A stretch of DNA of 8,098 nucleotides, from positions 1 through 8,098 of the IMG/VR virus record IMGVR_UViG_2531839474_000001. The stretch is one strand, 5' to 3'. Shown piece by piece: positions 1 through 8,098 of the stretch (position 1 is the first letter of the stretch; every line of letters starts with the position of its first letter). Position numbers and translations under genes: made by a program. Source of the stretch: a virus. Taxonomy: Duplodnaviria > Heunggongvirae > Uroviricota > Caudoviricetes. A model generated the notes under the pieces. That model made no database searches. It was not told the DNA's origin and worked only from the letters and a program-made list of their open reading frames with translations.

Positions 1-263
1 CGCGCCACTGTACATCTGGCCACCCTGATACCTTCGCGTAACAACTGGCGCCAGACTTTACGCACACCGTACACCTGATGATTTTCATCGTATACGCGCT
101 GTATCTCTCTCTTCAGCCAGTCATCGCGCTGAGCACGGGCACTGCGTTTATCAGGATGATGTCGCTGTTGCTGACAGTGGTAATACGTTGACGGGGCAAT
201 ATGCAGTTCACTGCATACCGGTCCGACCCCGTACTGCTCACGCAGCTTATCCAGCAGCGGCAT
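1..263 (-). CDS. IS3-family transposase OrfB (DDE catalytic part), N-terminal portion only; continues past the window edge
   Basis: Minus-strand frame -1 relative to orfA starts at an ATG overlapping the orfA stop and translates [88 protein letters not shown], consistent with IS629 OrfB. Open to position 1. Confidence 0.8.
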   Translation of the reverse strand, partial: MPLLDKLREQYGVGPVCSELHIAPSTYYHCQQQRHHPDKRSARAQRDDWLKREIQRVYDENHQVYGVRKVWRQLLREGIRVARCTVA

Positions 264-589
264 TATTTTTTCCAGAGGCGGTCGAACTCCGCCTTCGCAA
301 AATAAGCGGAAGCCTGGCGAAGGATATCGTTACTGCGGCGCAGTTCACGATTTTCACGTTCCAGCTCTTTCAGACGCTGACGTTCAGCGGTGGTGAGTCC
401 ACCATCACCACTCCCGGTATCCCGCTCATGCTGACGAACCCACACACGCAGAGTCTCTGGTGTACAGCCAATCTTTGGGGCAATGGAACAAATTGCCGCC
501 CATTGTGAGTCATATTCGCCCTGACTTTCCAGAACCATACGAACTGCCCGTTGACGGACCTCGGGGGAAAAACGTGTATTTTTAGTCAT
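263..589 (-). CDS. IS3-family transposase OrfA (helix-turn-helix, leucine-zipper part)
   Basis: 108-aa [54 protein letters not shown]...[28 protein letters not shown], matching my memory of IS629 OrfA. It ends in LWKK with an A-rich run (tggaaaaaataatg on the minus strand) at the overlap with orfB. Confidence 0.9.
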
Positions 590-667
590 CCTGTTTACCT
601 CTTTCTCAGGGAGTTTAGTCTCCAGGATTCCCGGGGCGGTTCAGTTCGGACTGAAAGGAGCAAGTGT

Positions 668-958
668 ATGACGGGCAAAGAGGCAATTATTCATTACCTG
701 GGGACGCATAATAGCTTCTGTGCGCCGGACGTTGCCGCGCTAACAGGCGCAACAGTAACCAGCATAAATCAGGCCGCGGCTAAAATGGCACGGGCAGGTC
801 TTCTGGTTATCGAAGGTAAGGTCTGGCGAACGGTGTATTACCGGTTTGCTACCAAGGAAGAACGGGAAGGAAAGATGAGCACGAACCTAATTTTTAAGGA
901 GTGTCGCCAGAGTGCCGCGATGAAACGGGTATTGGCGGTATATGGAGTTAAAAGATGA
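668..958 (+). CDS. hypothetical phage protein, possible winged-helix DNA-binding fold
   Basis: ATG at 668 is preceded by AAGGAG (655..660) at 7 nt spacing; 96 aa. The segment PDVAALTGATVTSINQAAAKMARAGLLVIEGKVWRTVYY resembles a wHTH recognition helix plus wing. The listed ORF 551..958 is an in-frame upstream extension into the IS end and is unlikely to be the real start. Confidence 0.55.
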   Translation: MTGKEAIIHYLGTHNSFCAPDVAALTGATVTSINQAAAKMARAGLLVIEGKVWRTVYYRFATKEEREGKMSTNLIFKECRQSAAMKRVLAVYGVKR

Positions 959-1038
959 CCATCTACATCACTGAGCTAATAACAGGCCTGCTGGTAATCG
1001 CAGGCCTTTTTATTTGGGGGAGAGTAAATCGTGGTTGA
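955..1038 (+). CDS. possible 27-aa hydrophobic peptide (MTIYITELITGLLVIAGLFIWGRVNRG)
   Basis: ATG at 955 overlaps the stop of the upstream gene (ATGA); it has a single predicted transmembrane segment. Too short for composition-based support. Confidence 0.25.
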   Translation: MTIYITELITGLLVIAGLFIWGRVNRG

Positions 1039-1237
1039 GTTGATTTTTTCTGCATTGAGGATTCTCGGTGCTATGTGGATGGTGGCGACGTTCATTGTGG
1101 TTGCCAGCAGTTTTGTCCGGCTGGTAGGCGAAGGTAAAGACCTGGTTGGTGTGCTTTTCGGTAGCATTTTCCTGTGGGTGATTATCGGTGTTGCGCCTGT
1201 CGCTGTAGCAAAAATGGCGTGGCGTTTTGTGAGTTGA
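1031..1237 (+). CDS. small hydrophobic protein, two predicted transmembrane helices (68 aa)
   Basis: GTG start at 1031 overlaps the end of the 27-aa ORF; a GGAGA-like SD lies upstream. Sequence MVELIFSALRILGAMWMVATFIVVASSFVRLVGEGKDLVGVLFGSIFLWVIIGVAPVAVAKMAWRFVS. It is co-oriented and ends 8 nt before ninB. Confidence 0.45.
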   Translation: MVELIFSALRILGAMWMVATFIVVASSFVRLVGEGKDLVGVLFGSIFLWVIIGVAPVAVAKMAWRFVS

Positions 1238-1244
1238 GGTGACA

Positions 1245-1691
1245 ATGAAGCAAATATACATGCTTCGCAACGAAGCAATCAGAAACAACGCCATAGACGC
1301 AATACTCTCACTTCCGATCGACGACAAGTCACCTCACGAAGTCCACATTAAAGAACCAAAGCGGAGCAATCCTCAAAACCGCCTTATGTGGGCGTTATTG
1401 CAGGACGTATCACGTCAGGTGCTTTGGCATGGACAGAGACTTGCGCCGGAGGACTGGAAAGACCTGTTCACTGCCCTGTGGCTTAAGACCAAAAAACTGG
1501 AGCAACGAAGTGTGCCTGGTATCGATGGTGGCGTTGTCATGCTTGGCGTGCGTACCAGCAAAATGCGAAAGGCCAGCATGACTGAGCTTATCGAAATCAT
1601 GTTTTGGTTCGGCTCAGAGCGCAACGTGCGGTGGAGTGATGACTCCCGGCGAGAGTATGAATGGTCACAACGAAAAGGTAGGGCTGCATGA
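1245..1691 (+). CDS. ninB: NinB (Orf-family recombination mediator)
   Basis: Translation MKQIYMLRNEAIRNNAIDAI...NPQNRLMWALLQDVSRQVLWHGQRL...[23 protein letters not shown] aligns along its length with lambda NinB as I recall it (MKKLTFEIRSP...DQNRKLWACLGDVSRQVEWHGRWL...GVKWSDEARLALEWKARWGDRAA). ATG 1245 preferred over the GTG at 1239; stop overlaps the next start. Confidence 0.9.
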   Translation: MKQIYMLRNEAIRNNAIDAILSLPIDDKSPHEVHIKEPKRSNPQNRLMWALLQDVSRQVLWHGQRLAPEDWKDLFTALWLKTKKLEQRSVPGIDGGVVMLGVRTSKMRKASMTELIEIMFWFGSERNVRWSDDSRREYEWSQRKGRAA

Positions 1692-2215
1692 CTATCAAAT
1701 CAAATACACCAGCACACGACAAGGACTGCTGGCAAACGCCGCTTTGGCTTTTTGATGCGCTGGATATTGAGTTTGGATTCTGGCTGGATTCAGCTGCGAG
1801 CGACAAAAATGCTCTGTGCGCTCACTGGCTAACTGAGGCCGACGACGCACTCAATTCTGAGTGGATAAGCCACGGTGCAATCTGGAATAACCCACCGTAC
1901 AGCAATATCAGGCCGTGGGTGGAAAAAGCCGCTGAGCAGTGCATACAACAGCGACAGACGGTAGTGATGCTTGTGCCAGAGGATATGTCTGTCGGATGGT
2001 TCAGCAAGGCTCTGGAGAGTGTTGACGAAGTTCGCATTATCACTGATGGACGGATTAATTTTATCGAACCATCGACAGGGCTGGAGAAGAAGGGAAACAG
2101 TAAAGGCTCCATGCTGCTGATTTGGCGACCGTTCATCAGTCCTCGACGGATGTTTACTACCGTATCCAAAGCGGCATTGATGGCGATCGGGCAGGGCGTC
2201 AGGAGGGCGGCATGA
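1688..2215 (+). CDS. phage Dam-like DNA N6-adenine methyltransferase
   Basis: 175 aa with the catalytic NPPY motif ([10 protein letters not shown]) and an N-terminal [17 protein letters not shown] region typical of the phage Dam family found in lambdoid nin regions. ATGA overlap with ninB stop and ninE start. No restriction endonuclease gene is adjacent. Confidence 0.8.
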
Positions 2216-2394
2216 GGCGACAGCGACGAAGTTTCACCGACATCATCTGCGAAAACTGCAAATACCTTCCAACGAAACGCTACAGAAATAAACGCAAGCC
2301 AATCCCAAAAGAATCTGACGTAAAAACCTTCAATTACACGGCTCACCTGTGGGATATCCGGTGGCTAAGAAATCGTGCGAGGAAAACAAGGTGA
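2212..2394 (+). CDS. ninE: NinE
   Basis: [60 protein letters not shown] is near-identical to lambda NinE from memory. AGGAGG lies 5 nt upstream of the ATG. The listed ORF 2122..2394 is an in-frame upstream extension. Confidence 0.9.
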
Positions 2395-2561
2395 TTGACC
2401 AAAATCGAAGTTACGAACAAGAAAGCGTCGAGCGAGCTTTAACGTGCGCTAACTGCGGTCAGAAGCTGCATGTGCTGGAAGTTCACGTATGTGAGCACTG
2501 CTGCGCAGAACTGATGAGCGATCCGAATAGCTCAATGTACGAGGAAGAAAACGATGAGTGA
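2391..2561 (+). CDS. ninF: NinF (Cys-rich zinc-ribbon-like)
   Basis: From GTG 2391 the product [56 protein letters not shown] matches lambda NinF ([28 protein letters not shown]...). GAGGA SD lies 7 nt upstream; the upstream ATG at 2349 would overlap ninE by 46 nt. Confidence 0.85.
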
Positions 2562-2823
2562 TTTCTCTGAGCTTATTTCCTTCAAAAAAGACAGAGAAGA
2601 AATGCGGACTGAATCTGTCTATTACGTTCAACACCGGAATAAACGCTCGGTGCTTGATCAGGAGTTGGTTATTACCGGAGACCTGGCATTCAGAACATAT
2701 AAGGCCAGCATGGAAATGAAGGATTTCCCTAAATGTGGTTCTGAAAGAGAAGCTGCGTTAAAGCTGGCTGAGTGGATGCAGAGAATGGCTGCTGCAATTG
2801 AGAATTACTGGAGTGAACCATAA
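2554..2823 (+). CDS. hypothetical nin-region protein (89 aa), function unknown
   Basis: Complete ORF translationally coupled at both ends (ATG overlaps the ninF stop; its TAA overlaps the next ATG). I do not recognise it as a lambda nin protein. Confidence 0.6.
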   Translation: MSDFSELISFKKDREEMRTESVYYVQHRNKRSVLDQELVITGDLAFRTYKASMEMKDFPKCGSEREAALKLAEWMQRMAAAIENYWSEP

Positions 2824-3113
2824 TGGCTAACCTACGCAAAGAAGCGCGCGGCAGAGAATGCCAGGTACGTATTTACGGCGTATGCAATGGCAATCCTGAA
2901 ACTACAGTTCTGGCACATTACCGGATGGCTGGAATTTGCGGAACGGGAATGAAGCCTGACGACCTGATCGGCGCATGGGCTTGTAGCGCGTGTCACGATG
3001 AAATCGACCGACGCACAATGATTATCGACAACAAAGATGCCAGACTTTACCACCTCGAAGGCGTGATCAGGACGCAGGCGATACTGCTGAAGGAGGGGAA
3101 GATTAAGTCATGA
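2823..3113 (+). CDS. ybcO: YbcO-like DUF1364 protein (putative metal-binding nuclease)
   Basis: 96 aa, MANLRKEARGRECQVRIYGVCNGNPETTVLAHYRMAGICGTGMKPDDLIGAWACSACHDEIDRR..., with the conserved Cys/His pattern I recall from DLP12 YbcO. Recognition is from memory. Confidence 0.75.
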   Translation: MANLRKEARGRECQVRIYGVCNGNPETTVLAHYRMAGICGTGMKPDDLIGAWACSACHDEIDRRTMIIDNKDARLYHLEGVIRTQAILLKEGKIKS

Positions 3114-3472
3114 ACGAATATCAGTTTGTGCTTCCATACCCGCCGTCGTTGAATACCTACTGGCGAAGACGGGGAAGCCAATACTACATCAGCGATAAAG
3201 GCCAGAAATACCGAAAAGACGTTCAGCAAATCATCCACCAACTCAAGTTAGATATTTTCACCAAATCACGACTCCGCATCAAAGTCATCGCAGACGTTCC
3301 AGACTCCCGCCGCCGCGACCTCGATAACATCCTGAAAGGTTTACTCGACTCCCTTATCCACGCCGGATTTGCGGAAGACGACGAGCAATTCGATGACATT
3401 CGCGTAATTCGTGGTGTGAAAGTACCAGGCGGAAGGCTTGGAATAAAAATCACCGAACTGGAGAACGCATGA
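3110..3472 (+). CDS. rusA: RusA Holliday-junction resolvase
   Basis: 120 aa; the motifs LPYPPSLNTYWRRRG, DVPDSRRRDLDNILKGLLDSL and GGRLGIKITELE match the RusA family (E. coli RusA: LPWPPSNNRYYRHNRG...PDRRRRDLDNLQKAAFDAL...GGRLELTITEM). Confidence 0.9.
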   Translation: MNEYQFVLPYPPSLNTYWRRRGSQYYISDKGQKYRKDVQQIIHQLKLDIFTKSRLRIKVIADVPDSRRRDLDNILKGLLDSLIHAGFAEDDEQFDDIRVIRGVKVPGGRLGIKITELENA

Positions 3473-3657
3473 ACGCCACAATTCAAACGATACCAGAGCT
3501 TCTTATCCATACACGAGGCAATCAGACCGAAGTGGCAAGGATGCTTTCCTGCGCAAGAGGAACAGTGCTCAAGTACAACCGAGACAGCAAAGGCGAGCGT
3601 CATGTAATAGTTAACGGCGTCCTGATGGTCAAACAGGGCAAGAGGGGAAGACGATGA
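3469..3657 (+). CDS. ninH: NinH
   Basis: 62 aa; TIPELLIHTRGNQTEVARMLSCARGTVLKYNRDSKGERHVIVNGVLMV matches lambda NinH (TIPDMLVEAYGNQTEVARRLKCSRGTVRKYVDDKDGKMHAIVNDVLMV). Start and stop both in ATGA overlaps. Confidence 0.85.
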   Translation: MNATIQTIPELLIHTRGNQTEVARMLSCARGTVLKYNRDSKGERHVIVNGVLMVKQGKRGRR

Positions 3658-4277
3658 GACTCGAAAGCGTAGCTAAATTTCATTCGCCAAAAAGCCCGAT
3701 GATGAGCGACTCACCACGGGCCACGGCTTCTGACTCTCTTTCCGGTACTGATGTGATGGCTGCTATGGGGATGGCACAATCACAGGCCGGATTCGGTATG
3801 GCTGCATTCTGCGGTAAGCATGAACTCAGCCAGAACGACAAACAAAAGGCTATCAACTATCTGATGCAATTTGCACACAAGGTATCGGGGAAATACCGTG
3901 GTGTGGCAAAGCTCGAAGGAAATACTAAGGCAAAGGTACTGCAAGTGCTCGCAACATTCGCTTATGCGGATTATTGCCGTAGTGCCGCTACGCCGGGCGC
4001 AAGATGCAGAGATTGCCACGGTACAGGCCGTGCGGTTGATATAGCCAAAACAGAGCAGTGGAGGATAGTTGCTGAGAAAGAGTGCGGAAGATGTAAAGGC
4101 GTCGGTTATTCAAGAATGCCAGCAAGCGCCGCATATCGCGCTGTGACGATGCTAATCCCAAACCTTACCCAACCCACCTGGTCACGCACTGTTAAGCCGC
4201 TGTATGACGCTCTGGTTGTGCAATGCCACAAGGAAGAGTCAATCGCAGACAACATTTTGAATGCGATCACACGTTAG
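3654..4277 (+). CDS. Q: late-gene antiterminator Q (lambda type)
   Basis: 207 aa, MRLESVAKFHSPKSPMMSDSPRATASDSLSGTDVMAAMGMAQSQAGFGMAAFCGKHELSQNDKQKAINYLMQFAHKVSGKYRGVAKLEGNTKAKVLQVLATFAYADYCRSAATPGARCRDCHGTGR..., essentially the lambda Q sequence as I recall it, including the Cys-rich zinc-binding region. Confidence 0.95.
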   Translation: MRLESVAKFHSPKSPMMSDSPRATASDSLSGTDVMAAMGMAQSQAGFGMAAFCGKHELSQNDKQKAINYLMQFAHKVSGKYRGVAKLEGNTKAKVLQVLATFAYADYCRSAATPGARCRDCHGTGRAVDIAKTEQWRIVAEKECGRCKGVGYSRMPASAAYRAVTMLIPNLTQPTWSRTVKPLYDALVVQCHKEESIADNILNAITR

Positions 4278-4319
4278 CGCCATGATTGCCACGGATGGCA
4301 ACATATTAACGGCATAATA

Positions 4320-4375
4320 TTGACTTTTTGAATAACTTTGGGGAAACTTGACACCAATAATGGGCGTTTTTTACA
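4320..4375 (+). promoter_or_regulatory. late promoter pR' with Q-utilisation (qut) region
   Basis: TTGACT (4320..4325), a 17-nt spacer TTTTGAATAACTTTGGG, then GAAACT (4343..4348). This is collinear with lambda pR' (TTGACT-TATTGAATAAAATTGGG-TAAATT-TGACTCAACGATGGG) and sits just downstream of Q. Similarity to lambda ends shortly after the expected transcription start. Confidence 0.6.
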
Positions 4376-4514
4376 TGTCATTGATGAGTCTCAATAACCT
4401 GCCGCCGAGTAGTTTTTATGCTCTGAATTGTATTTGTGTAGTAAACATGCTGACTGCAATGTAATAGAGTTTTTTTAGCCTGTAACCTCTTGACGGCATT
4501 GAATTGCTTTTGTT

Positions 4515-5225
4515 ATGAGTTGTAAGCCAATGTTATCATCTTGTATTGGGGTGGTTATGAAGGATGGTGCGCTGCTCAGGAGTTCTTCACTTTTTATTGC
4601 CTACATGGGATGCCTTGGATGGGGGAGTGCTTATTTCTATGGATGGGGTACTTCTTTTTACTACGGCTTCCCATGGTGGATTGTAGGTGCAGGTGTTGAT
4701 GATGTTGCCAGAAGTTTATTTTTTGCAGTTATCGTCATTGCTATATTTCTTATCGGTTGGGGTATTGGTGTTGTATTCTTTTTCGCAGTGAAAAGAAAAC
4801 ATTCTATGCAAGAGCTAAATGTATTTCGCCTTTATTTTGCTGTGGAATTATTGTTTGTGCCGGCAATTATTGAGTTTTCTATATTGAGACAGAAGATTCA
4901 GGTACCTCTTTTGCTACTGTCAGCAGCGATTGCGCTGGCGGTTACAATTTCGATAAGATCTTATGGGCGATTTTTATCGGTATCATGCTTCTATGATAAG
5001 CCATTTATAAAAAAACATTTTTTTGAGATTGTGATGATTGCTTTTGTGGCATATTTCTGGCTTTTTTCATTTCTGACAGGATATTACAAACCACAGTTTA
5101 AGAAAGAATATGAAATGATTAATTATAATGATGGTTGGTATTATGTTCTTGCTCATTATGATAATTGTCTGGTTTTGTCTACTTCTTTCAATGCAGGTAG
5201 TAAAAGGTTTGTCATTTATCAATAA
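4515..5225 (+). CDS. uncharacterised polytopic inner-membrane protein (cargo gene in the Q-S interval)
   Basis: Only long ORF in a clearly AT-rich stretch; 236 aa from ATG 4515 (alternative starts at 4530 and 4557, none with a strong SD). About five hydrophobic helices (e.g. SLFFAVIVIAIFLIGWGIGVVFFFAV, VPLLLLSAAIALAVTISI, FFEIVMIAFVAYFWLFSFLTG) and an aromatic-rich C-terminal tail. No recognisable family. Confidence 0.6.
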   Translation: MSCKPMLSSCIGVVMKDGALLRSSSLFIAYMGCLGWGSAYFYGWGTSFYYGFPWWIVGAGVDDVARSLFFAVIVIAIFLIGWGIGVVFFFAVKRKHSMQELNVFRLYFAVELLFVPAIIEFSILRQKIQVPLLLLSAAIALAVTISIRSYGRFLSVSCFYDKPFIKKHFFEIVMIAFVAYFWLFSFLTGYYKPQFKKEYEMINYNDGWYYVLAHYDNCLVLSTSFNAGSKRFVIYQ

Positions 5226-5406
5226 GCACAAGATAAGAATCTTCAGGTTGATATTGTAAGGACCAGAATTTAATTGGCTGCATAAATAATATTTTAAGTT
5301 GCAAGTTGGCTATTCGTAGGAATAGAACCTTAGGCATGCTGAATGCGTTTTCTGAACATTGTTTTATAAACTGTGTCTGCTTGCTGTTGTGATCCTGCTT
5401 TTAGTG

Positions 5407-5517
5407 ATGGTGATGATGGATTTCACCAGCAGGATAATGTTGGTACTGACTGATGGCGCTCTGGTCTGCGGCATTGTGGTATTGCTGTGGCCGATGATGA
5501 AAGAACAGAATGAATAA
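5407..5517 (+). CDS. possible small hydrophobic peptide (36 aa, MVMMDFTSRIMLVLTDGALVCGIVVLLWPMMKEQNE)
   Basis: Short ORF with one predicted transmembrane segment, lying antisense to a listed minus-strand ORF. No convincing SD; in-frame GTG/TTG alternatives lie upstream. Speculative. Confidence 0.2.
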   Translation: MVMMDFTSRIMLVLTDGALVCGIVVLLWPMMKEQNE

Positions 5518-5703
5518 TTCTTGACTTTTTTGTTTACTGTTTATTAAAAAATCAACCGCATGGTGAATCCTCCTTGGAGGGGCTAAATGATCGAGTTTTA
5601 AGGGCACGTAGCGAGTTCTGTTTGATCATTGCAGAACTTAGCGGGAGGCGCCATGCGTACATCACTAATGTTATTTCCTTCTATCATTTTCCTTGTGAGT
5701 TCT

Positions 5704-5730
5704 GGCTGCGCATGGCGCGGCCTTTTTTTT
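5704..5730 (+). terminator. rho-independent terminator (plus-strand orientation)
   Basis: GGCTGCGC (5704..5711), loop ATG, GCGCGGCC (5715..5722) forms an 8-bp GC-rich stem with one G-U pair, followed by a run of eight T (5723..5730). Confidence 0.6.
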
Positions 5731-5919
5731 ATGACCTGCCACTGGCAGATGGTCATCCTGTGATTTGATTCCGGTTCCGGCTTTTTAACTCTGTTCCTGT
5801 ACACGGGAGAAATTCTATGTCGATTAATCGTTATGATATTGGTTACAAGAAGTACCACGTATTGTGTTGAGATAGAAAGCATGGTGCCAGAGGTAAATGC
5901 AGCAGCATAATAAAAAAGA

Positions 5920-5959
5920 GCCAGCGCAGAAGAGAACGGGTAAAAGAGTCTGCGCTGGC
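5920..5959. repeat. perfect 11-bp inverted repeat (GCCAGCGCAGA / TCTGCGCTGGC) separated by 18 nt
   Basis: Arms at 5920..5930 and 5949..5959. A second small hairpin GGGG-ATATT-CCCC follows at 5962..5974. No T-run follows either, so it is not a canonical intrinsic terminator. Confidence 0.55.
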
Positions 5960-6075
5960 GTGGGGATATTCCCCGTGGAGAAATGATATGTAACACACAT
6001 CGGGAACCTTTCTATATAAACATTATCATTATTGTCAATCATAACAGTCAGGTATTATGACGTTTATGCATCAGG

Positions 6076-6104
6076 GCCATCAGGAATTAACTGGTGGCTT
6101 TTTA
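6076..6104 (+). terminator. rho-independent terminator about 35 nt upstream of the holin start
   Basis: GCCATCAG (6076..6083), loop GAATTAA, CTGGTGGC (6091..6098) forms an 8-bp stem with one G-U pair, followed by TTTTTATTG. Confidence 0.5.
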
Positions 6105-6138
6105 TTGTTGTCAGCTTCCGGATAACGGGAGACGGGGT

Positions 6139-6354
6139 ATGTACCAGATGGAAAAAATAACAACAGGTGTGTCATACACCACGTCAGCGGTGGGGACGGG
6201 ATACTGGCTACTGCAGTTGCTGGACAAAGTCTCTCCGTCCCAGTGGGTGGCAATAGGTGTGCTGGGAAGTCTGCTGTTTGGCCTGCTGACGTATCTGACA
6301 AATCTTTATTTCAAGATTAAAGAAGATAAGCGTAAGGCTGCGAGAGGTGAATAA
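6139..6354 (+). CDS. S: class II holin (phage 21 S-type pinholin) with dual-start motif
   Basis: From ATG 6139 the product [71 protein letters not shown] (71 aa) matches phage 21 S as recalled ([68 protein letters not shown]). A second in-frame ATG at 6148 gives the shorter form. Stop overlaps the endolysin ATG. Confidence 0.9.
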
Positions 6355-6851
6355 TGTCGCCGTCATTACGCAAGGCTGTTGCAGCTGCTATTGGTGGTGG
6401 GGCTGTTGCCATAGCGTCTGTGCTCATCACTGGTCCAGGTGGTAACGATGGTCTGGAAGGTGTCAGCTACATACCATACAAAGATATCGTTGGCGTATGG
6501 ACTGTATGTCACGGACACACCGGAAAAGACATCATGCCCGGTAAAACGTATACCGAAGCAGAATGCAAAGCCCTCCTGAATAAAGACCTTGCCACGGTCG
6601 CCAGACAAATTAACCCGTACATCAACGTCGATATACCGGAAACAACGCGCGGCGCTCTTTACTCGTTCGTTTACAACGTGGGCGCTGGCAATTTCAGAAC
6701 ATCGACGCTTCTTCGCAAAATAAACCAGGGCGATATCAAAGGCGCATGTGATCAGCTACGGCGCTGGACATACGCTGGCGGTAAGCAATGGAAAGGGCTG
6801 ATGACTCGCCGCGAGATTGAGCGTGAAGTCTGTTTGTGGGGGCAACAATGA
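6354..6851 (+). CDS. R: SAR endolysin (phage 21 R-type lysozyme with N-terminal signal-anchor-release domain)
   Basis: 165 aa; N-terminal Gly/Ala-rich weakly hydrophobic segment [20 protein letters not shown] followed by a lysozyme catalytic region ([25 protein letters not shown]). Near-identical to phage 21 R as I recall it. Confidence 0.95.
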
Positions 6852-7285
6852 GCAGGGTAACCGTTATTATCTCCGCTCTGGTTATCTGCATTATCGCCTG
6901 CCTGTCATGGGCTGTTAATCATTACCGTGATAACGCCATCGCCTACAAAGAGCAGCGCGATAAAGCCACATCCATCATCGCTGATATGCAGAAGCGGCAA
7001 CGTGATGTAGCAGAACTTGACGCCAGATACACAAAGGAGCTTGCTGATGCTAATGCGACTATCGAAAGTCTCCGTGCTGATGTTTCTGCTGGGCGTAAGC
7101 GCCTGCAAGTCTCCGCCACCTGTGCAAAGTCAACGACCGGAGCCAGCAGCATGGGCGATGGAGAAAGCCCAGGACTTACAGCAGATGCTGAACTCAATTA
7201 TTACCGTCTCCGAGGTGGAATCGACAAGATAACCGCGCAGGTTAACTACCTGCAGGAATACATCAGGACGCAGTGCTTAAAATAA
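6848..7285 (+). CDS. Rz: Rz i-spanin
   Basis: From ATG 6848, [39 protein letters not shown]...RLQVSATC...QCLK matches lambda Rz ([39 protein letters not shown]...). N-terminal transmembrane anchor plus coiled-coil periplasmic domain. ATGA overlap with the endolysin stop. Confidence 0.9.
7047..7232 (+). CDS. Rz1: Rz1 o-spanin (outer-membrane lipoprotein), embedded in the +1 frame of Rz
   Basis: AAGGAG (7034..7039) lies 7 nt upstream of ATG 7047. Product [36 protein letters not shown]... has a signal peptide, a lipobox-like VSAC and a Pro-rich mature part, as in lambda Rz1. The start could instead be 7017 or 7053. Confidence 0.75.
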
Positions 7286-7322
7286 TTTTAATTTCACTGA
7301 AATTTAACAAGTGACTTTCAGG

Positions 7323-7352
7323 AAAATGCCTCGCAGATGCGGGGCATTTTTG
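7323..7352 (+). terminator. rho-independent terminator after the lysis cassette, possibly bidirectional
   Basis: ATGCCTCGC (7326..7334), loop AGAT, GCGGGGCAT (7339..7347) forms a 9-bp stem with one G-U pair, flanked by AAAA upstream and TTTTT downstream. Confidence 0.6.
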
Positions 7353-7434
7353 TACCGGTATTTCACCGCGCACCGCAGCGCACAATAAACACCGAACCTG
7401 ACCCTTTGGAATGGGCCTTTGAGGATACCAGTTA

Positions 7435-8052
7435 GTGCTGGCGAGCCTCGGTGGGCTGGTTTCCTGTGCGGCAAAGGTTCATTTCAAAGAAGCAGGCAAC
7501 GCCATGAATGAATTAATTGCGAATCATGACTTCGACTTTCGCCAGTTAGTTACCGCAGCAGAAGGTCAACCGGTAACTGACACCTTCCAGATTGCCAGGG
7601 CATTTGGTAAACGCCATCAGCATGTGATTAGGGCTATTAAATGTTTGAGATGTTCTGAGGAATTCTCGACAACCCATTTTTGGGCCGTCGAGAAAATCAA
7701 TGACTTAGGGATTTTTGACAAGAAACAGATTTACTACCGCATGGACTTTAGTGGCTTCGTTATGCTGGTTATGGGATTTAACGGGGCAAAAGCCGATGCT
7801 GTTAAAGAAGCCTATATCAATGCGTTTAACTGGATGTCAGCAGAACTCCGTAAGTACAGCGAAAGTTATGAAGCAGAACGTAACGCCGTAATGCTGGAGT
7901 ACATGAAAGAGAAGGATGTCGCCAGCATGTCAGGCCGTCTGCTCAATCGCTGGGGGAGAACGAAAAAACCTCAATTGCTTGCAAAGCTGGAACGTCTGGA
8001 GAGACAGGGACAGTTTTTATTACCGGGATTCGATAAAGGTATTCAAGCCTGA
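7435..8052 (+). CDS. Rha-family phage regulatory protein (often annotated as antirepressor)
   Basis: The segment PVTDTFQIARAFGKRHQHVIRAIKCL...YYRMDFSGFVMLVMGFNGAKADAVKEAYINAF resembles the Rha domain (compare SSREIAELTGKQHKHVLRDI in known Rha proteins). GTG start at 7435 has a GAGGA SD about 9 nt upstream; ATG 7504 (MNELIANHDF...) is an alternative start. Confidence 0.65.
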   Translation: MLASLGGLVSCAAKVHFKEAGNAMNELIANHDFDFRQLVTAAEGQPVTDTFQIARAFGKRHQHVIRAIKCLRCSEEFSTTHFWAVEKINDLGIFDKKQIYYRMDFSGFVMLVMGFNGAKADAVKEAYINAFNWMSAELRKYSESYEAERNAVMLEYMKEKDVASMSGRLLNRWGRTKKPQLLAKLERLERQGQFLLPGFDKGIQA

Positions 8053-8098
8053 CACATTATGCGCTGTATCGTCGCCGTATTCCCGCATTAACCATGAC

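Follow-up and report, generated by a model that had tools for sequence, protein, structure and literature searches.

IS629, the end of P, and ren

The window, the whole stretch of 8,098 nucleotides analyzed here, begins inside a copy of the IS3 family element IS629, which fills positions 1–643 on the minus strand and is represented by the 643 nt counted from its IRL end. Positions 1–643 match many E. coli plasmid copies at 100% over 643 nt. One of them, in AP019707.1 (643 of 643 nt identical), bears the depositors' annotation 'IS629 transposase OrfA / OrfB'. The minus strand opens with TGAACCGCCCCGGGAATCCTGGAGA, which places the IS terminus at base 643. This IRL (619–643, minus strand) shares 22 of its first 25 positions with the IRR of the full 1310-bp copy, and the ends are the imperfect terminal inverted repeats of IS629 (TG...CA), with the IRR at L016 1485 in the source scaffold described below. 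The orfA gene (263–589, minus strand) was found in the ORF list and encodes 108 aa that cover positions 1–86 of the NCBIfam transpos_IS3 profile, in agreement with the OrfA annotation in AP019707.1. The orfB gene (1–263, minus strand) lies in the −1 frame relative to orfA and is truncated by the window start. Translation of its N-terminal 87 codons gives the 87 OrfB residues inside the window, which cover transpos_IS3 positions 93–172 and match OrfB of AP019707.1. The catalytic DDE domain of OrfB (rve, PF00665) is outside the window, on the gene at L016 1527–2161. The overlap of orfA and orfB carries the ALIL pseudoknot of the programmed −1 frameshift region (192–308, minus strand), which is of the IS3411/IS629 type and matches Rfam RF01497 over its full length with 120.9 bits (gathering score, 50). 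Both transposase genes are antisense to the rightward phage operon. A TTG-initiated ORF (551–958) begins inside the IS, antisense to orfA and in frame with ren; this mechanical ORF call would add a 39-residue N-terminal extension to ren.

Alignment with the E. coli SLK172 prophage and with 933W shows that homology to uninterrupted phages begins exactly at 643/644. The SLK172 prophage is 99.9% identical to the window over 644–8098, and three other uninterrupted relatives (L018–L020) are 99.84–99.97% identical to its phage part, so that SLK172 and L018–L020 together span 99.8–99.97% over 644–8098. L018 carries a 933W-type cI-cro-cII-O-P block upstream of the matching phage part. Window 644–671 is identical to nt 675–702 of P in SLK172 and to 933W 15165–15192. 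This puts the IS within P, in Lys codon 225 of 233 and behind nt 674 of 702, at a point where the uninterrupted sequences (SLK172, L018–L020) read ...CTCAAAGCTAA|GTTCGGACTG. What remains of P is its last 28 nt (644–671, plus strand), a stretch that opens with the third base of Lys codon 225 and closes with the TGA stop at 669–671. An intact 233-codon P (lambda P, PF06992) is not present, and the scaffold holds no 5' part of P beyond the IS.

The first phage gene after the IS is ren (668–958, plus strand, 96 aa), which is 99–100% identical to the annotated ren of 933W, H-19B, phage 21, and RefSeq E. coli genomes. Its Shine-Dalgarno sequence AAGGAG (655–660, plus strand) lies inside the P coding sequence and consists of the same bases in the uninterrupted phages. 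The ren start ATG (668–670) overlaps the P stop as ATGA, an overlap that couples translation of ren to that of P in all uninterrupted relatives. The ren product matches PHROG 142 'Ren-like exclusion protein' with E=3.6e-42, and its residues 1–66 match PHROG 1687 'MarR family' with E=1e-10; the match to Pfam HTH_Crp_2 (E=0.061) is below the cut-off. A winged-helix-like fold is plausible for Ren; the AlphaFold2 model built from the single sequence without an alignment is unusable (pLDDT 48.9). By homology, the 668–958 gene is lambda ren. The lambda ren phenotype is resistance to Rex exclusion, which the gene in the window may confer.

An earlier sequence-only reading of this DNA had placed the end of an IS629-like element at 643, an AAGGAG at 655–660, and an ATG at 668, and all of these coordinates are confirmed, with 100% identity to annotated IS629. 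The same reading called the first phage gene winged-helix-like and held that the disrupted target cannot be identified. The gene is ren, with its ribosome-binding site inside P and the ATGA overlap of stop and start, and the match of 644–671 to the end of P makes the right-hand target identifiable.

A terminator-like hairpin followed by a T run was found by consensus scan just after ren (984–1007, plus strand), and the records of phages 21, O276, and 933W have an annotated terminator within their match to window 644–1024. The rest of the rightward delayed-early operon follows at 1031–4277 (plus strand), now without pR or nutR. Its order, taken from the ORF list, the SLK172 annotation, and Pfam, is a 68-aa ORF, ninB, a Dam-type methylase gene, ninE, ninF, an 89-aa ORF, DUF1364/YbcO, rusA, ninH, and Q. 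The 68-aa ORF (1031–1237), between the hairpin and ninB, is hydrophobic and belongs to PHROG 1165 (unknown function).

The other end of the IS and the missing interval

The window is exactly one contig (L016 2472–10569) of NCBI scaffold JH659573.1 (GCA_000261145.1), set between two N runs. Directly to its left is a gap of 310 N, and beyond the gap lies a 677-nt IRR half of IS629 that is identical to the reference copy at 675 of 677 positions (2 mismatches). The left contig ends with ...GGCGCGCCACTG and the window starts with CGCGCCACTG. The two overlap by 10 nt, and 677+643−10 gives 1310 bp, exactly one IS629. The possibility that the N run masks sequence in place was rejected, because 677+310+643 exceeds the length of the IS and the two sides overlap by 10 nt. 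The N runs of the scaffold vary (310, 100, and at least 900), and the 100-N gap to the right of the window conceals a true overlap of 388 nt at a join that the relatives confirm. N runs in this scaffold can thus stand for unmerged, near-abutting contigs. The IS halves are nevertheless joined across an N run in a multicopy repeat, and their adjacency represents the submitters' scaffolding rather than continuous sequence. When identical full-length copies were sought as a test for a hybrid element, the best copies of the merged 1310-bp IS in complete genomes were 99.9% identical, not 100%.

The IRR end adjoins nutL and gene N, not P. The sequence to its left, L016 1–1484, corresponds to 933W 8164–9647 with 99.7% identity and contains ea10/ssb, L0079, N, and part of nutL, so the IRR junction falls within the annotated nutL (933W 9614–9680). 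The split 933W-type nutL, which is outside the window (L016 1451–1484), retains a boxB-like hairpin, GCGCTGACAAAGCGC, beside N; its promoter-proximal half and pL are gone. Gene N now reads in the same direction as the IS transposase genes. The right flank, at the IRL end, corresponds to 933W 15165.

The interval absent relative to 933W is 9648–15164, or 5517 bp (about 5.5 kb). In the 933W annotation it comprises the rest of nutL, the pL region, L0081, stk, L0083, L0084, cI, pM, and pR with the operators, followed by cro, nutR, cII, O with its six iterons (ori), and 674 of the 702 nt of P. Between N and ren the scaffold contains no cI, no pL or pR with operators, no intact nutL, no nutR, and no O/P with ori, provided that the scaffold join is correct.

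The IS is bordered by AAT on the left (L016 1482–1484) and by GTT on the right (window 644–646), and a 3-bp target-site duplication was not found at the scaffold IS629 flanks. The element shares its 100% identity, 1310-bp length, TG...CA ends, orfA/orfB pair, and ALIL with the IS629 of EHEC chromosomes, prophages, and plasmids (isoforms IS1203 and IS3411 are near-identical); it differs from the usual IS629 in its unmatched flanks. The missing duplication shows that a rearrangement followed insertion and is no argument against the identity of the IS.

Exact junction patterns of 37 and 22 nt drew no hits in genome, viral, or metagenome contigs, and BLAST with either junction gave no contiguous match in complete E. 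coli genomes or GenBank phages. With both junctions absent from the 5,426 complete E. coli genomes, the GenBank phages, the GTDB species representatives, the JGI metagenomes, and IMG/VR, these public collections provide no independent confirmation of the join. One contig (L023), which starts 34 nt before ren, was considered as a second instance of the junction and rejected, its P sequence being uninterrupted there.

A probable deletion scar and its alternatives

These data probably describe a lambdoid prophage in which a full-length, 1310-bp IS629 has been left as a deletion scar. The prophage itself is composed of a 933W-type left arm and a lambda-like nin, Q, and lysis region. Either homologous recombination between two copies or an IS-adjacent deletion would be expected to leave a single IS with non-matching flanks, which intact relatives have 5.5 kb apart. 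The most likely route would be RecA-dependent recombination between an IS629 copy in nutL and a second, directly oriented one in P; alternatively, a single copy may have generated the deletion next to itself. Either route would remove pL and oL, the boxA half of nutL, cI, pRM, pR and oR, cro, nutR, cII, O with ori, and codons 1–224 of P.

The sequence-only reading had treated the locus as a simple insertion. In that case, IS629 would have entered P with a 3-bp GTT duplication, and beyond the IS one would expect unbroken O, 5' P, cI, and pR. Either an intervening contig would be missing from the scaffold, or two different IS629 copies would have been mislinked in it, and the immunity and replication block would either be kept between two IS copies or be mis-scaffolded. 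The junctions expected in place of the N-IS629-ren arrangement are ...AAAGCTAAGTT|TGAACCGCCCCGGTTTTCC and GGGGCGGTTCA|AAT.... The interrupted gene would encode P minus its last 7 residues plus a 12-residue IS-encoded tail (computed product P1-226+EPPRFSWRVFYL), and N-antiterminated pR transcripts could still cross the IS. Two other P::IS629/IS1203 alleles of O157:H7 prophages, which have the same orientation and 3-bp duplications, speak for this arrangement, as does the fact that the join here spans N's within a repeat. Against it, the scaffold sets the N-side contig beside the window with a short estimated gap (310 N), the actual 10-nt overlap completes exactly one 1310-bp IS, and the order and orientation of N and ren fit a single prophage. 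The flanks AAT and GTT, 5517 bp apart in 933W, do not form a duplication, and skipping about 6.8 kb would presumably need a far larger gap estimate. We consider a simple insertion unlikely.

The deletion reading has direct consequences for expression. In the standard lambdoid circuit, a prophage with this structure would be without a repressor, without an SOS-inducible early promoter, and without replication, and ren, the nin genes, and Q would be promoterless. Late transcription needs Q, so the late genes would be expected to stay silent as well. A stray rightward transcript would be without N/nutR modification and would then reach the terminator-like hairpin at 984–1007. The sole gene downstream of the IS transposase promoter would be N, and weak read-through into N is conceivable. 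The element would thus be a silent remnant whose genes could return to circulation solely by recombination with other lambdoid phages. As judged from its gene content, the prophage is very probably defective.

A promoter scan bears on the last alternative. A crude consensus scan, which weak or non-sigma-70 promoters could escape, detected sigma-70-like sites neither on either strand of 1–1300 nor around the N-side junction. It is most improbable that an IS-borne outward promoter keeps ren, the nin genes, and Q expressed and the remnant transcriptionally active: the ORF at 551–958 does begin inside the IS in frame with ren, and rusA of DLP12, a K-12 cryptic prophage, is activated by upstream IS2/IS10 insertions, but the transposase genes and their promoter are directed away from ren, the plus strand of 1–1300 holds no sigma-70-like site, IS3 family elements have their outward-facing −35 in the IRR and not in the IRL that faces ren here, the hairpin follows ren, and nutR is lost.

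The claims of the sequence-only reading about function divide along the same lines. Its proposal that the insertion separates the nin region from the replication genes and pR holds more strongly than it expected, in that the far IS end in the scaffold adjoins nutL/N and the immunity and replication module is absent. Its suspicion of a defective prophage is strengthened to very probable by the absence of cI, pL/pR, and O/P with ori from the scaffold. The checks it proposed gave a junction at exactly 643/644 by alignment with uninterrupted prophages, and a second IS end that was found in the scaffold at nutL/N, with no target duplication. Its idea that read-through or an IS-derived promoter serves the nin genes is not borne out, given the opposite direction of the transposase genes and the lack of a sigma-70-like outward site in the scan.

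Related alleles and the remainder of the window

P::IS629/IS1203 alleles occur in O157:H7 prophages of strain 8368 and of JEONG-1266 and about 20 related genomes, where the IS is in the same gene and the same orientation, directly upstream of ren. The sites of those alleles differ from the one described here, being after P nt 603 and nt 267 with 3-bp duplications CAA and ATG, and they keep both halves of P, O, and the repressor, whereas the present allele is a deletion. The locus is thus closest to the O157:H7 P::IS629 alleles but advanced to a deletion.

Elements of the IS629/IS1203 type recur in the early-right and replication module of other lambdoid prophages. The two P insertions in the same orientation, with duplications CAA and ATG, are those at L004 2315–3624 and L005 2315–3624. 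L017 462–1675 is an IS3-family transposase gene at the place expected for O, and L013 2879–4092 is another just upstream of cII. Three P sites, all in one orientation, together with the transposase genes at the place of O and upstream of cII, raise the idea that IS629 hits the O-P replication module of lambdoid prophages above chance and that the present allele is an end state. We regard this as very unlikely. If such an excess were true, it could come from a target preference, or from selection that favors the 'grounding' of prophages with their cargo and late genes preserved. In a lesser variant, transposase read-through may give low constitutive N from the boxB-only nutL remnant, acting in trans on co-resident 933W-type Stx prophages.

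In EHEC O157, IS629 is more abundant than any other IS. It is documented to cause gene inactivation and genomic deletions (PMC9943667), and it is a main driver of Stx-phage diversity and the chief origin of the variation seen among Stx2a phages (PMC4587872). PMC9943667 cites work on deletions associated with IS629 and on the pool of defective prophages in EHEC (Ooka 2009; Kusumoto 2011), in which IS629 likewise stands at a prophage-inactivating deletion. The paper describes IEE-type deletions as accompanying IS excision; the IS is kept here, so recombination of two copies or an IS-adjacent deletion would fit better. IS629-driven inactivation and deletion of EHEC prophages is already well documented, and the locus is one more instance, with nothing beyond known biology.

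The locus is very probably a dead prophage remnant of a type well known in pathogenic E. coli, and its significance reaches little beyond annotation; it adds to the picture of IS629 eroding the prophages of EHEC-type E. coli. Cryptic prophages of K-12 such as DLP12 retain ninE, ybcO, rusA, Q, and the lysis genes without a working immunity and replication module. Their nin genes are silent for want of a promoter, an outcome that resembles the remnant described here. DLP12 is nevertheless a different prophage with a different history, and close relatives of the present prophage have downstream late and structural genes that look mostly intact. For annotation, the 8-kb nin/Q/lysis block looks intact, yet it belongs to a prophage that is almost certainly non-inducible and non-replicating and is not to be counted among active phages. 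A contig that begins inside an IS can conceal a deletion, not just a simple insertion.

The right-hand end of the window bears on the annotation of a Rha-family gene (7435–8052). The contig after the 100-N gap repeats the window from 7711 onward (window 7711–8098; L016 10570–11011), inside this gene. A duplicate made by the assembly, and not a duplicated gene, therefore accounts for the additional 113-aa 'Rha' ORF called beyond the gap.

An AT-rich cargo block (4300–6090; 35–43% GC) separates Q from the holin gene and occupies the place at which Stx phages have stx. It contains a DUF3927 ORF (5359–5517), a 132-aa ORF without a family match (5598–5996, minus strand), and a gene for a TfpB-like (PF27470) membrane protein of 231 aa (4530–5225). 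In the SLK172 prophage, which is 99.9% identical, the TfpB-like gene carries a frameshift.
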